In this document: piece by piece, positions 21,001 through 30,000 of the stretch
Layout of the letters: each line of letters begins with the position of its first letter
Position numbering within the stretch: the stretch's first letter is position 1
Source of the DNA: Candidatus Cloacimonadales bacterium
GTDB taxonomy: Bacteria > Cloacimonadota > Cloacimonadia > Cloacimonadales > JAFGVF01
Direction: 5' to 3'
Length of the DNA stretch: 64,000 bases
Assembly: GCA_963662585.1 (NCBI GenBank)
Contig: OY759729.1
Coordinates: forward strand, 192,001-256,000
Program-made: the position numbers

Positions 21001-24000
21001 GACTTCAAACTAATGCTGATTTCTCTTTCTTAAACTTAGGTGGAATTAGAGCAGAAATCGGTGCTGGTCCTGTTACTTATAGAGATATCTTCTCTGTAAT
21101 GCCTTTTGATAATCAGCTTATCTCCTTCCAATGTGACGGAAGATTCTTAAAACAAATCATCGAAACTCGTATTGAAGGTTCAAGAGCTGGTATGATCTGT
21201 TCAGGTGCTAAAGTTAGATTTAGTAGAACTAGGGAAAACTTTGACAGAATCACTGAATTAATCATCGGTGGACAAGAATGGGATCCTGACAAAATCTACA
21301 CAGTTGCTACAACAGACTTCTTAATGGAAGGAAATGCTGGCTTAGCTCTCTTAACAAATGTTGAAGAAGAAAATATCTCTCGCAATGAATTGAACTTGAG
21401 AGATGCTATAGCTAATCATTTCAAACAAAACTCACCTATGAAAACAAAAATTGATGATCGTTGGATTAGAGATGATAAATCCGAACCAAAAGAGTATTTA
21501 AGGAAATAATTAATGATTACACTTGCTATTGATACCTCAAATAGCTCTGGCAGTATTGCCTTACTAAAAAATAAAGAACTACTCTTTAGTAGCTTCTTCA
21601 ATATAAAGATTACTCATTCAGAGACTTTAATGCCCGAAATAGATCGGGCATTAAGCCTCTGTAATCTTAAAACTAGTGATTTAGATGCAATTGCTATTGC
21701 CATAGGTCCTGGATCATTTACAGGACTAAGAATCGGCTTAGCTACAGTAAAAGGTATAAGCTATGCCCATAAAGTACCTATCATTCCGATAAGTTCACTT
21801 AAAGTAGTAGCAATGAATTATTATAATTGTGGCAAAGACATCTTAGTAATGCAAGATGCTAAAATGAAAGAAGTATATGTTGCTCTCTACTCTTCTCAAT
21901 TAGAAGAGATTATTGCCCCTGTCTGTATTAAACCTGAAGAGGTGAAGCAACTTATAAACAAAGCAACTATTATTGTTGGAACAGGTATTGCGAATTATCA
22001 AGAATTTATTAAAGGTTCTCCCGATATTGAGATTAATCCTCTCCTAGAGAAAAATCAAGCAAAAGCAGAATCAATGTTTTCTATTATCCAAATTGAAAAT
22101 ATTAATCCTTCTTTTGACTTCGATTTTAATTCTAAACTTGAACCATATTATATTCGTAAATCCCAGGCGGAAGTTAATCGAATTCAAAAAAATAATTAGT
22201 TAAAAAACCTCTATCGTAGGTATAAATTTTGGAGTGAATATGTTATTACAAAGATTGTTTAGCAAAATATCAAATGATATTGCTATTGACTTAGGTACAG
22301 CGAATACCTTAGTATATAAAAAAAATTCTGGTATCGTAATTAATGAACCATCTGTTGTTGCTTTATCGACAGATAGTAAAAAAGTGCTAGCTATTGGCAC
22401 CGATGCTAAAGAGATGTTAGGAAGAAATCCTGCAGAAGTGACAGTAATTAAACCACTCAAAGATGGTGTGATTGCTGATTTTCAGGTTACAGAAATTATG
22501 CTCCGAAACTTAATTCTTAGAGCCCAAAAAAATAAATTCCATATCAGACCTAGAGTTATCGTATGTGTTCCTTCAGGAATTACTGAGGTTGAAAAAAGAG
22601 CTGTTAGAGATAGTGCCTTGCATGCTGGCTCGCGCGAAGTATATCTAGTTTCCGAACCCATTGCTGCTGCTATCGGAGCCGACCTTCAGATTAACAAACC
22701 TTATGGTAACTTAGTCATGGATATCGGTGGAGGAACTTCTGAAATCGCTGTAATCTCCCTCTCCCATATCGTAGTTCATAACTCAATAAGAGTTGGAGGA
22801 GATTCTATCGATAGAGATATTATTAATCATCTTCGCAAAAAGAATAATCTTCATGTAGGTATTCAAACCGCTGAAGAGATTAAAAAGAAAATTGGTTCAT
22901 GTGTTCCTCTTAAAGAAGAGTTAATAATGAATGTATCTGGCAGAGATATCGTTAGTGGTTACCCAGTAACAGTTGAAATCTCTTCTGATGAAATAAGAGA
23001 AGCCATTAGCGACACTGTAGATATTATGATTGACGCAATAAAAAAATTGTTTGAAAAGACTGCTCCAGAATTAGCTTCAGATATAGCTGAAAGAGGTGTT
23101 TTCTTAACTGGTGGTGGAGCTTTACTAAGAGGATTAGACACAAAAATACAAAAGACCGTTGATTTACCAGTTCATGTTGTCCCTGATCCCTTAACCTGCG
23201 TTGTAAAAGGTTCTGGTAAAATCTTAGATAATTTAGAACTTTATAAAGAAGTATTGATTAAGAAAATTGAAGATTAATAAGCGTGAAAAAAATCTCATTT
23301 TTACGATTGATTCTATTAATAGTTTCGATAATTTTAGTTATTGGAGATCAAGATCATAAGATTAAGAAAGCTGATTTTTTCTCATCTTATATTTTATATC
23401 CCTACTCAAAATCGATAAACTATTTTCAATCACTTAAGAAAAAAGAGAGTGAAATTGAAAAACTTACTCAAGAACTTTTTGAACAGCGAATTAATACTAG
23501 TTTACTTAAATCAGAATTAATCAGAACTAAAGCAGAATTAGACTTAAAAGATAGATGGTTCTCTGAATCAGATTCTCTCTTTAAAAGTTTGGAGATTATC
23601 AGTGCGAAAGTTATTTCCAACTCCTTTCCAGTCTATTCTAAAGTACTAATGTTAGATAAAGGTTTAACAGATCACATTGAAGTCAATGATGCCGTAATCA
23701 GCCAATATGGTATTGTTGGGAAAGTTTTTAATGTTTCTCCAACTCACTCTTTAGTCCTACCCATAGTTAATTATAATGCTAAATTCTCTGTTATGAATAA
23801 GAAAAATGTTCAAGGAATACTTAATGCAGATTATCAAGGTACTCTTAAAATGAGTTTTATTGAAAAAAATTCAGACATTAATGCTGGAGATACCTTGTAT
23901 ACTTCTAATTTATCTGAGGTCTTTACGAATTATTATGCCCCTGTTGGAGTAGTTGACTCTGTATTTATGGCAAATAATCAATTATATTTAGAGGCTTTAG

Positions 24001-27000: not shown

Positions 27001-30000
27001 TATGCTGAAAATTAAGAACTTTGATTTAGGACTATTCTTTGCATGGTTCTTATTAGTTTCGATTGGTATAATTATAATCTATACTGCATCTATTACTAGT
27101 TATGGAGAATTTACTCAAGTAAATAATTATTACATCAAACAGTTAGTATTTTTTCTATTTATTATTCCGATCTTCTTCTTTATTCAAAAGATTCCCTACT
27201 TTATTATAGATGCCTTAATAATACCAGGTTACATTATCTCCATAATTTTACTCTTTATCGTACTATTTACCCCTGAAATTAATGGCTCAAACAGATGGAT
27301 ACAATTAGGTGGCTTTTCGCTACAACCTTCCGAAATCGCTAAGATTATGACTATATTGACTATTAGTAAGTTTCTCGCAAAACCTCATCAAGGGGATTCT
27401 CGTAAAATAATAACTGGTATTATTATTGCTTTGATACCTATTTTCCTTATAATGATAGAACCTGATTTTGGAACTACTTTGGTATTTTGGGTCTCCCTTT
27501 TCGCTATGCTCATGGCAGCCAATGTTCCTATAATCTATCTGTTAATCCTTATTGCTCCAATTATATCCATTTCGTTAGTAATTTTCTCGCCCTACTCAGC
27601 CTTGATATTTATCATTCTTTTTAGTTTTCTTCTTTTTAAATTAAAATTCAATTGGGTAGTTCAAGCAATATCTTTCCTCACGAATCTCTTTGGCAGTATT
27701 ATCTTCTGGCAAATCCTCAAACCTTATCAAATTAACAGAATACTGACCTTTATAGACCCGACAAGAGACCCTCTTGGTGCAGGGTATCAAGTAATACAAT
27801 CCAAAATAGCTGTTGGTTCAGGTGGTCTTTGGGGCAAAGGTTTTCTGCAAGGTACACAGAAGAACTTAGACTTTTTACCTGAAAATCATACAGATTTCAT
27901 TTTTTCAGTATATGGTGAAGAATTAGGCTTCATGTTTTCTTTACTTCTTCTCGGACTTTTTTTCTATTTATTAATAAAAATAATAAAATCTATTGACAAA
28001 ATATATGTTCTTGAGCGTAAGATTGCAACAGTTGGTATATTTGCCTTTATATTTTTCCAACTGTTTGTAAATATAGGAATGAATATTGGAATAGTTCCAA
28101 CCACAGGAGTTCCTCTACCATTTATTAGTTATGGTGGATCAAATCTTGTAATTAATTCAGTATCAATAGCTTTGGTACAAAAATATTTAGTTGAAAAAGG
28201 ATTTATGAAATGACCAAAAAAAGTATTATTATCTTAATATTATCAATTATTCTACTCTCATGTTCTCGTTTTATTAAACTTAGAGAAGAAAATTTCACAA
28301 AGCAATTATCAGAAAACCTTATTGAAAATGGAGATTTTGAGATTTATCAAGATAATATTGATAATTCATTACCTGGTTGGATTTTTGATAAAATTTCTAC
28401 TGATAAAGTTTCCATTGATACAACTAGAAGCTTTGTGGGAAATAATTGCTTAAAAATTTCCCAACCTTCCAGAGAAATGCAATTAGTCACAAAACCTTTT
28501 CATACTAACCACAGAAATGTTTACGGCATAAGATTATCTGCTAAATCAGTGTTGAGAAAAATTCCTATTGTTATTCATTTTTTAACTTTTTCTGAAGATG
28601 GAAAGATTGTTTCAAAATACTACAGCAATATTACTGTTGATACTAAATGGCACACATATACTTTTGTTTCTGATTATCTTAAGGTTAATTCTGAGTTTGG
28701 AAGAGTCTTTATTACTATTCCCGAGAACAATTCAGTTTTACTTTTAGATGATATCAATTGCCTTATTATCGATGCTTACCAAAAAAAGTAATGTAACTAA
28801 ACTGTCACCCTCCCGTTATACATTAAAAAAATTGAAGGAGTTTAAAATGTTTAAAACCCATAAGTATTTTGCCCTAATATTAATAATGTTAATTGCTAGC
28901 GTATCACTCATAGCTAAAGAGAAGAGTCCTTTTGTTGATATAGTAAAACAAAGTAGAGATGCTGTAGTCCAAATTAAAGTTGAAGGAACAATAGCTAATC
29001 AATATAGAAATCCATTTCAGAATGACGATTTTTTTAAGTTCTTTTTCCCTCAACAACCTCAAGTAAGACCTTATGTATCCCTTGGAAGTGGCTTCATATT
29101 TGATTATAATGAAAATGACGATATAGCTTATATTCTTACTAATAACCATGTTGTTGAATTAGGTGAAAAGGGTACAATAACTGTTACTTTAGCTGATAAG
29201 AATAGTATTGAAGCTGAGATAGTAGGTTTAGATCAAGCAACTGATTTAGCTGTCATTAAAATACAAGTACCTAAAAATGAGAAAATTACAGTTTTACCTC
29301 TAGGTAATTCTTCTACTCTAGAAATTGGTGAGTGGGCTATAGCAATTGGAAATCCTTTTGGTGATTCAGGACTTGATAGAACTGTCACTGTGGGAGTAAT
29401 TTCAGCCTTAGGAAGAGCTGGTATGAATTTTGGCAACAACTCCCCTATCTTCCAAGATTATGTCCAAACTGATGCTGCTATCAACCCTGGCAACAGCGGT
29501 GGACCACTCTTAGATATTGATGGTAAAGTAATAGGTATTAATGCAGCCATAACCAGTACTAGCGGTGGAAATGTAGGTATCGGCTTCGCAATTCCTATTG
29601 ATTTAGCTAAAAAAGTTTCAGAGGATATCTTGGAATATGGATATGTCCGTAGAGCTTATCTAGGAATAATGCCACAAGAGATTAATGAAGATCTTAAAAT
29701 TAACTTTGATTTAAATGAATTAGCCGGTGTTTTAGTAACAAATGTTGAACCTGATACTCCAGCTTCTCGAGCAGGATTAAAAAAAGGTGATATAATTAAA
29801 GCCCTAAATGGTACTAAAATCCATAATATTCATAAATTTAGAACTGAGATTGCTCATAGTCCTATAGATTCTCCTATTGATATTTCTATTATTAGAGATA
29901 AAAAAAACAAGGTCATCACTGCAACTTTAAGTGAACATCCTGAATTTAGCAAAAACCAAAGTCAATTAGCTAAACAGAAAAAAGCATCAGTAGGGATTGT

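Follow-up and report, generated by a model that had tools for sequence, protein, structure and literature searches.

A CofE-fold putative amide ligase within the cell-elongation operon of Cloacimonadota, and its candidate role in tailoring the peptidoglycan precursor

The closest described system to the gene studied here (gene X) is CofE, the F420-0:gamma-glutamyl ligase of Archaeoglobus fulgidus, together with FbiB's N-terminal domain (PDB 2PHN, 7ULD). In CofE, a nucleoside triphosphate and a divalent metal serve to convert a carboxylate into an acyl phosphate, and an amine then attacks it. Another COG1478 enzyme, FolC2 (CT611) of Chlamydia, has been recruited away from F420 and, encoded within a folate operon, takes the place of FolC where that enzyme is missing (PMC1971073; PMC4161248). 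Amides on the alpha-carboxyl of D-Glu in peptidoglycan are formed, at a lipid-linked stage, by a polyamine ligase activity in Selenomonas and Veillonella and by an N-acetylputrescine ligase activity in Cyanophora, and the accessible parts of the literature found name no gene for either. The former is presumably the activity called 'lipid intermediate:diamine transferase'. In the walls of Negativicutes, polyamines are attached to the D-Glu alpha-carboxylate of the stem peptide, where they are bound by OmpM, tethering the outer membrane (PMC10628300; bioRxiv 2021.05.31.446380), and in the glaucophyte plastid N-acetylputrescine is described as joined to the same carboxyl, as an amide, on lipid II (PMC3266927, PMC3334493). 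As proposed here for gene X, MurT/GatD amidates this lipid II carboxyl in a nucleotide-dependent reaction; unlike gene X, it has a Mur-ligase fold and draws its ammonia from glutamine (PMC3266927). A literature search, which covered few subscription papers, found no link between COG1478 or CofE and peptidoglycan, in agreement with the preliminary description of this DNA, which had reported no published connection between the ligase family and the cell wall.

The window, the whole stretch of 64,000 nucleotides analyzed, comes from a Candidatus Cloacimonadales genome consisting of a single contig (98% complete). It carries mreB, mreC, gene X, mreD, pbp2 and rodA in this order, every gene on the + strand. 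The products of mreB (22234..23277, starting at GTG 22234 or ATG 22240) and mrdA, encoding penicillin-binding protein 2 (pbp2; 25225..27015), scored above the cut-offs of TIGR00904 (435.5 bits, cut-off 365.75) and TIGR03423 (510 bits, cut-off 455), respectively, and mreC (23283..24077) matched PF04085 with 106.6 bits. For rodA (26954..28213), 333.6 bits were obtained against TIGR02210 (cut-off 336.7) and a score above cut-off against NF037961; its longest reading frame begins at TTG 26954, and ATG 27002 is the likelier start. The mreD gene (24741..25232) is itself a weak match to TIGR03426 (E 2e-4, below cut-off), and its identity was supported by orthologues, three of the five tested passing PF04093 (Pfam MreD). 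Gene X (24064..24741, start ATG 24064) encodes a putative amide ligase of 225 residues with a CofE fold (COG1478/PF01996). Its 5' end overlaps the 3' end of mreC by 14 nucleotides, and its stop codon shares one base with the start codon of mreD (TAATG). Promoter and terminator scans gave signals at or below chance, and one RNA run yielded scattered short contigs, one of them (151 bases) inside gene X, which show neither transcription nor co-transcription.

Gene X passed the Pfam model PF01996 (34.5 bits, cut-off 25) and failed the CofE equivalog PRK13293 (12.4 bits, cut-off 274), and TIGR01916 gave no match at E<=1. The Mur-ligase and MurT_C domains of the MurT/GatD class likewise gave no Pfam match. 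Searched as sequence alone, gene X had no match among solved structures, CofE being reached by profile only. The AlphaFold model (pLDDT 93.8) had CofE of A. fulgidus as its sole Foldseek match (E 1e-8, TM 0.63), and in VIA-align 181 residues were aligned with CofE at Z 15.1 and rmsd 3.0, the next match having Z 4.8; the earlier claim of a CofE fold, with a match to the Archaeoglobus enzyme, is confirmed. Gene X and CofE have in common the fold, the N-terminal motif and, aligned with D180 of gene X, the aspartate of 'IITDTNG', and by inference the formation of an amide through an acyl phosphate. The two proteins differ in that they are only 18-20% identical, the lysine of CofE 'STVISKAEGR' is out of register in gene X, and the middle third, where gene X has basic hydrophobic helices, is unalignable by sequence; gene X, moreover, is found in a cell-wall gene context without an F420 pathway. 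For the C-terminal third, no residue-level alignment with CofE was obtained. Within residues 140-218 (24481..24717, + strand), D140, D180, N182, D183, N208-P209-x-G211 and T217-P218 are near-invariant in the gene X family, and we propose that the block may form the metal/nucleotide site. Residues 70-130 (24271..24453, + strand) were compared across 142 homologues for hydropathy, hydrophobic moment and the frequency of K/R relative to D/E. In the model, residues 70-84 form a basic amphipathic helix and a hydrophobic helix is flanked by R108, K120, K125 and R130, all conserved among these homologues; the region is proposed to be a membrane-binding surface.

Homologues of gene X were identified in 125 of 151 genomes of the phylum, with best matches 52-90% identical, a conservation wider than the preliminary description had stated. 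The remaining 26 genomes, some of them complete, lacked the gene also when searched with a 52-sequence profile, and the five near-complete genomes without it all showed a clean mreB-mreC-mreD-pbp2 order. The reported insertion of a ligase-fold gene between mreC and the mreD-like gene was seen in every one of the 90 loci read, a subset of the 125 carriers comprising the 30 best matches, 40 from the low end and 20 picked for family spread. That the arrangement is typical of Cloacimonadota also stands as regards the position in the mre operon; the emphasis needs correction, the subfamily itself being widespread, with 965 representatives at 50% identity and members in 74 of 201 Bacillota genomes. 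A plasmid search gave no match, and a phage search returned two unannotated records.

Roles in F420 or folate metabolism are unlikely because CofC, CofD and CofG are absent and FolC is present. CofC and CofD were not found in the genome and CofG gave nothing above cut-off, so that for these three the claim of a genome without F420 genes holds. A genuine F420-0:glutamate ligase, or a gene carried along without a role in the operon, would account for the fold, the Pfam label and the clean loss in 26 of 151 genomes; the missing CofC/CofD/CofG, the 12 bits against a cut-off of 274, and a position fixed phylum-wide with overlapping start and stop codons make it highly improbable, and F420 synthesis was rejected as the role of gene X on the missing pathway genes and the equivalog score far below cut-off. 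Hardly more credible is an alternative folate glutamylase like Chlamydia FolC2, which has the precedent within the same COG1478 family and, in 2 of 30 Bacillota loci (L134, L138), neighbours that by eye resemble aminodeoxychorismate synthase/lyase. FolC scored 348 bits in the host genome (cut-off 162.65) and was above cut-off in 20 of 21 gene X-carrying Cloacimonadota and 5 of 5 Negativicutes, and folate genes adjoin gene X in none of the 90 Cloacimonadota loci. Unlike the Chlamydia enzyme, which stands in for FolC among folate genes, gene X occurs alongside FolC and in no folate cluster, and a FolC2-type role was rejected on these grounds.

Of 121 Negativicutes genomes, 120 contained the subfamily, each as a single gene; loci named Selenomonas ruminantium and Anaerovibrio lipolyticus are among these, with 36% identity to gene X. 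The glutamate racemase gene murI lies within 1.4 kb upstream in 48 of the 75 loci with room for it, and a gene for a membrane partner adjoins the subfamily gene in all 80 loci. An N-terminal hydrophobic segment, with more K/R behind it, is present in 63 of 64 partner sequences; its domain folds as an Ig-like beta-sandwich and has generic matches only (adaptin ear, TMEM106B) and uninformative Atlas names. Genes for a hydantoinase/oxoprolinase and an HDAC-family deacetylase flank the subfamily gene in 38 and 36 of the 80 loci, respectively, and also at four other Bacillota loci, while MurT was found in none of five Negativicutes genomes. The same gene order occurs in V. parvula, where Vpar_0432 was assigned by annotation and order from the supplements of PMC5491611; in the membrane extract reported there, which held many contaminants, Vpar_0432 had ~19 times the abundance of MurI, close to that of its partner. 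Since the proposed acceptors in Negativicutes are cadaverine, putrescine or spermidine, we consider the murI-linked Vpar_0432, with its putative membrane anchor Vpar_0431, to be the probable polyamine ligase of Negativicutes walls. The subfamily belongs to the core genes of Negativicutes, where it lies beside murI and is putatively membrane-anchored, and it is predicted to be identical with the polyamine ligase activities, although the branch found in Cloacimonadota probably has a different acceptor. The Selenomonas activity depends on ATP and CofE on GTP, a difference that counts against this assignment.

Among Bacillota, the neighbours were mixed in the 30 loci that scored best (1.5 kb flanks). 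Twenty further loci were chosen blind to neighbours; here amidase_3 was found as a fusion or nearby in 10, a polyamine decarboxylase lay within two genes in 8, one or the other was found in 14, and SpoVB/MurJ-like flippases were neighbours in 4. Scanning of 86 long homologues revealed six amidase_3 and twelve AsnB-type fusions, one fusion each with a PlsY-type acyltransferase, a CDP-alcohol phosphatidyltransferase and a polysaccharide deacetylase, and none with nitroreductase or Cof domains. MurT (MurT_C) is missing from the host genome, whose MurE is of the mDAP type, and MurT from all 151 phylum genomes searched. In Bacillota, it co-occurs freely with the subfamily: mutual exclusion was not found (both in 24 of 201 genomes versus 26.5 expected), and at four loci the subfamily gene lies 3-9 kb from murJ-murT-gatD, so that two enzymes on one carboxyl need explaining. 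The subfamily is also present in cyanobacteria, and the eukaryotic homologues named among the matches listed belong to streptophyte algae, bryophytes, one lycophyte, ferns and one conifer, the plant carriers being lineages that retain plastid peptidoglycan. The best 120 of 2805 hits, a list that fills with cyanobacteria, included no named glaucophyte. According to a review, cadaverination does not appear to take part in cyanobacterial outer-membrane tethering (bioRxiv 2021.05.31.446380), and a modification of plastid peptidoglycan has been proposed, not identified (PMC9434261).

The neighbours and fusions in Bacillota and the retention in cyanobacteria and plants support the earlier view of a cell-wall amide-forming enzyme instead of an F420 enzyme, to which we add an inferred substrate. 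More likely than not, gene X encodes a membrane-associated ligase that depends on nucleotide and metal and forms an amide at the D-Glu alpha-carboxyl on lipid II. Such a protein would be cytoplasmic and would tailor the peptidoglycan precursor at the membrane, NTP and a divalent metal giving, as in CofE, an acyl phosphate for attack by an amine; the carboxylate would most likely be that of D-Glu, the residue at stem position 2 of lipid I/II, whose alpha-carboxyl is free. The Cloacimonadota enzyme would act without an anchor partner, the Negativicutes-type membrane protein being absent from this genome (64-sequence profile, E<=1). With its translation coupled to that of mreC and mreD, it would modify precursor destined for the elongation machinery of RodA and PBP2. 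A different amine may serve as its acceptor, because the branch lies outside the polyamine clade, D141 and D151 are missing and polyamine decarboxylases are often missing. In a quick tree (SH-aLRT only), the Cloacimonadota clade falls beside, not inside, the clade with polyamine links, and it lacks D141 and D151, both 99-100% conserved in Negativicutes and in cyanobacteria/plants. An ODC-like gene is found in 62 of the 125 phylum genomes with gene X and 11 of the 26 without, no link between the two emerging across the phylum, and the host genome has one fold-III ODC/LDC-like gene that reached no equivalog cut-off. Among 20 carriers drawn from families without the ODC-like gene, 12 had none of the other four decarboxylase families. 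Given lipid II amidation, neutral amines, small amino acids among them, are somewhat favoured as the acceptor, an imported polyamine being a plausible second.

Other envelope substrates have to be weighed against lipid II D-Glu. A peptidoglycan amide ligase acting elsewhere, on the mDAP epsilon-carboxyl or side-chain amine (as a bridge or cap) or on an amidase-released muropeptide, would cover all cell-wall contexts and the coexistence with MurT, even as neighbours, and the AsnB fusion partners belong to a family that amidates mDAP (PMC8554201). We consider this unlikely, as it leaves unexplained both the match to the sole class known for D-Glu polyamination and the linkage to murI and decarboxylases. 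The membrane anchor or basic helices, the PlsY-type, phosphatidyltransferase and deacetylase fusions (one each of 86) and the flippase neighbours (4 of 20 loci) would also suit a ligase at the membrane surface that accompanies cell-wall genes and acts on undecaprenyl-linked polysaccharide, on lipid A/LPS or on an amino lipid. Its location within mreCD and behind murI, and its retention in plant lineages with plastid peptidoglycan, which have no LPS, render such a substrate still less probable. Finally, a soluble enzyme that makes glutamyl-polyamines (or acyl-polyamines) to store or turn over polyamines, with no wall role, would fit the hydantoinase/oxoprolinase and HDAC-family flanks (38 and 36 of 80 Negativicutes loci; four other Bacillota), the decarboxylase neighbours and the native handling of glutamate by CofE. 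It does not explain the membrane anchor, the amidase fusions or the mre-operon position, many carriers appear to lack polyamine synthesis, and we give it a slightly lower chance again.

The COG1478 subfamily could, tentatively, represent a second widespread route for amidation of the D-Glu alpha-carboxyl with organic amines, its acceptor pocket retuned across Negativicutes, cyanobacteria/plastids, Actinomycetota and Cloacimonadota. Were this so, the polyaminated walls of Negativicutes would be made by Vpar_0432, cyanobacteria, and algae, mosses, ferns and conifers in their plastid peptidoglycan, would carry an undescribed stem-peptide modification, Actinomycetota with the AsnB fusion would have amino-acid amides, and an unknown amine cap would be wired into the elongasome operon of Cloacimonadota. 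The relatives of gene X are strong candidates for a wall-modifying enzyme known by its product and apparently never tied to a gene. The proposal is directly testable, since the candidate has a name, Vpar_0432, and occurs as a single copy in an organism open to genetics. If true, it would replace an 'F420 ligase' label that is widespread among genomes making no F420, imply that plastid peptidoglycan bears a specific modification, bring an eleventh gene into the peptidoglycan toolkit of plants, and offer a first prediction of wall chemistry in Cloacimonadota, an uncultured phylum.

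Gene X (225 aa, 24064-24741, + strand) interrupts the mre operon of the window, where the + strand order is mreB-mreC-X-mreD-pbp2-rodA; its ATG at 24064 gives a 14-nt overlap with mreC, and at the other end its stop codon overlaps the mreD start. The product scores above the cut-off of Pfam F420_ligase (PF01996; 34.5 bits vs. 25), and its confidently predicted model (pLDDT 93.8) matches only Archaeoglobus fulgidus CofE (Foldseek E 1e-8, TM 0.63; VIA Z 15.1 over 181 residues, next match Z 4.8). Named close homologues of X belong to Cloacimonadota, and X was found in 125 of the 151 genomes of the phylum; the remaining 26 lack it even with a broad profile. 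The order mreC-X-mreD was seen in 90 of 90 loci read out of the 125 (the 30 top-scoring, 40 low-scoring and 20 spread over families), and five near-complete genomes without X show a clean mreB-mreC-mreD-pbp2. X thus has a fixed position, though some lineages manage without it. The insertion between mreC and an mreD-like gene, the sole match to Archaeoglobus CofE and the wide distribution in the phylum, all claimed in the preliminary description, were thus confirmed. Six closed genomes of 1.5-1.6 Mb, which form one family in the same class (G002, G005, G008, G017, G023, G064), all lack X and keep mreBCD-pbp2 where read.

Upstream of the operon, in the same gene run (window 15673-21509), are a 913-aa helix-hairpin-helix protein, a 476-aa probable outer-membrane barrel to which no family was assigned, a 5'-nucleotidase and tsaB. 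The window also encodes a 1690-aa DEAD-box helicase (2206-7275, - strand), two proteins of 500 and 1301 aa with type IX-like C-terminal sorting domains (31471-37012), and an MltG/YceG-family lytic transglycosylase (55408-56427, + strand) with ruvX-like and rph-like genes on either side. Elsewhere in the source genome, pgsB (over cut-off, TIGR04012) and, after it, a pgsC-like gene and a third gene make up a poly-gamma-glutamate synthesis cluster (G000:C1:1872378-1875100, L007). Genes for probable ATP-grasp, fold-III decarboxylase-like and membrane proteins, labelled partly by eye, cluster at G000:C1:2634152-2638742 (L126), and a MurE-MurF fusion occupies a single 942-aa frame (G000:C1:3230689-3233514, L002).

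The source genome, a single contig that is 98% complete, holds one PF01996 gene; CofC and CofD were not found in it and nothing exceeded the CofG cut-off, in keeping with its earlier description as free of F420 genes. X reaches 12.4 bits with the CofE equivalog (cut-off 274), and this score and the lack of CofC and CofD make a CofE/FbiB F420 ligase very unlikely. A FolC2 function, as outlined in the accessible parts of PMC1971073 and PMC4161248, is made very unlikely by FolC, which is full in the source genome and over cut-off in 20 of 21 X carriers tested. X is thus a divergent CofE-fold enzyme, inserted phylum-wide in the operon, outside F420 and folate synthesis. MurE of the source genome is of the mDAP type, with the DNPR motif, and MurT was found neither there nor in any of the 151 phylum genomes.

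Beyond the phylum, 965 representatives at 50% identity matched the subfamily, one of them a Sporomusa protein. With this as query, 80 named loci (best 80 of 404) were obtained, which include Selenomonas ruminantium (protein 36% identical to X), Anaerovibrio lipolyticus, Megasphaera and Veillonellaceae; of 121 Negativicutes genomes, 120 have the ligase gene. Directly upstream of it in all 80 loci is a gene for a 180-aa partner, with speD nearby in nine and glutamate racemase (murI) within 1.4 kb in 48 of the 75 with room. Taken by itself, the link to murI carries modest weight, since murI-rph-rdgB is a common cluster. In 63 of 64 partner sequences a hydrophobic N-terminal segment is followed by basic residues. 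The partner appears as a membrane-anchored Ig-like beta-sandwich (L043:4419-4985; residues 36-165 of protein P0343) that matched no Pfam or NCBIfam family; in Negativicutes it has a gene of its own, and in cyanobacteria and plants it forms one fused protein with the ligase.

In Negativicutes walls the D-Glu alpha-carboxylate bears cadaverine or putrescine, which OmpM recognises, and the polyamine ligase is not named in the accessible parts of these sources (PMC10628300; bioRxiv 2021.05.31.446380; PMC12826042). The Veillonella parvula order in the available text of PMC5491611 (thioesterase, murI, membrane protein Vpar_0431, COG1478 protein Vpar_0432, hydantoinase) is that of our Negativicutes loci, Vpar_0432 being placed by annotation and order rather than by sequence. 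Mean iBAQ values there were 1.6e8 for Vpar_0432, 9.1e7 for Vpar_0431 and 8.5e6 for MurI, figures for an outer-membrane extract only, which according to its authors contains many contaminants. The Negativicutes member is quite probably the polyamine ligase. In Sporomusaceae, Veillonella and one separate group of Bacillota (L043-L084, L157-L160), the ligase gene is flanked by genes for a hydantoinase/oxoprolinase and an HDAC-family deacetylase, a pair that may recycle acylated polyamines.

Among Bacillota outside Negativicutes, 74 of 201 genomes gave a profile match, and the 30 top-scoring loci, read with flanks of 1.5 kb, had mixed neighbours. Of twelve regions picked by hand, four were taken for their nearness to murT; these four hold an amidase, the X homologue and murJ-murT-gatD inside 3-9 kb. 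Some of the other regions have an Orn/Lys/Arg decarboxylase immediately downstream or, a short way off, a pyruvoyl arginine decarboxylase. At 20 further loci from 19 genomes, chosen with neighbours unseen, 10 had amidase_3 and 8 a polyamine decarboxylase no more than two genes away; 14 had at least one of the two and 6 had neither (raw counts with non-independent kin and no random-locus baseline). Mutual exclusion of X and MurT, predicted beforehand, is absent: MurT matched in 72 of the 201 genomes and co-occurs with an X homologue in 24, vs. 26.5 expected. Some high-GC Bacillota (G281, L162/L163; also G324, G359, G468) have two distant ligase paralogues, one beside arginine decarboxylase, and at L243 (G361) the ligase gene separates argF from argG in an operon for arginine biosynthesis.

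Fusions were scanned in 86 longer proteins, from 150 listed of the 965 hits plus two others. AsnB-type domains were found in 12, TPR in 12 and muramoyl-alanine amidase in six; polysaccharide deacetylase, PlsY, CDP-alcohol transferase, GNAT, M20, HD and adenylate kinase domains occurred once each, and nitroreductase or Cof domains in none of the 86. One of the AsnB fusions belongs to Arthrobacter roseus; some members of Arthrobacter bear glycine-amide or alanine-amide on D-Glu, and Micrococcus bears glycine there.

With a Chlorokybus protein as query, the best 120 of 2805 hits named the algae Klebsormidium, Mesostigma, Mesotaenium and Closterium and the land plants Riccia, Marchantia, Calypogeia, Ceratodon, Sphagnum, Diphasiastrum, Adiantum, Ceratopteris and Cryptomeria, followed by cyanobacteria; no angiosperm, chlorophyte, red alga or glaucophyte was named among these 120. 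Five of seven plant proteins checked have an S/T-rich, acid-poor N-terminal segment instead of a membrane anchor. The carriers fit the lineages whose plastid peptidoglycan kit is complete, as far as the available text of PMC10784329 and PMC12681378 describes them. Glaucophyte plastid walls bear N-acetylputrescine on the D-Glu alpha-carboxyl, added at a membrane-bound stage, according to accessible parts of PMC3266927, PMC3334493 and PMC9434261.

Several independent contexts thus tie the subfamily to peptidoglycan, and together with the missing CofC and CofD they favour the amide-forming cell-wall enzyme proposed in the preliminary description over an F420 enzyme. The open literature, searched without subscription papers and bioRxiv supplements, gave no link of CofE/COG1478 to peptidoglycan; a prior identification is possible. 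PMC12632261 and PMC5115768 contributed no further evidence.

In CofE, GTP and Mn activate a carboxylate and the acyl phosphate is then attacked by an amine (accessible parts of PMC10861534 and PMC8498797); X, likewise of COG1478, would share this mode of action. D140, D180, N208, P209, G211 and P218 are 98-100% conserved over 142 homologues, and D180 aligns with 'IITDTNG' of CofE. The helices at residues 70-84 and 106-130 are basic, hydrophobic and almost acid-free, as a membrane-seated surface should look. The catalytic core is common to all four groups compared. Negativicutes, cyanobacteria and plants have IDDVTGTxPPxD, including D141 and D151, acids that would suit a cationic acceptor; Cloacimonadota have IDAAxSPVxPY and DINDIGGxW, and the missing acids suggest an acceptor other than that of the polyamine-linked members. 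A quick tree puts the Cloacimonadota group (support 81) within a 54-row clade (97), next to a clade of 39 rows (97) that comprises Negativicutes, cyanobacteria, plants and decarboxylase-linked Bacillota. In line with this position and the missing acids, polyamine synthesis does not track X across the phylum; the source genome has an ODC/LDC-like gene. The acceptor in Cloacimonadota may be a polyamine or another amine; on balance we lean towards X amidating the D-Glu alpha-carboxyl of lipid II.
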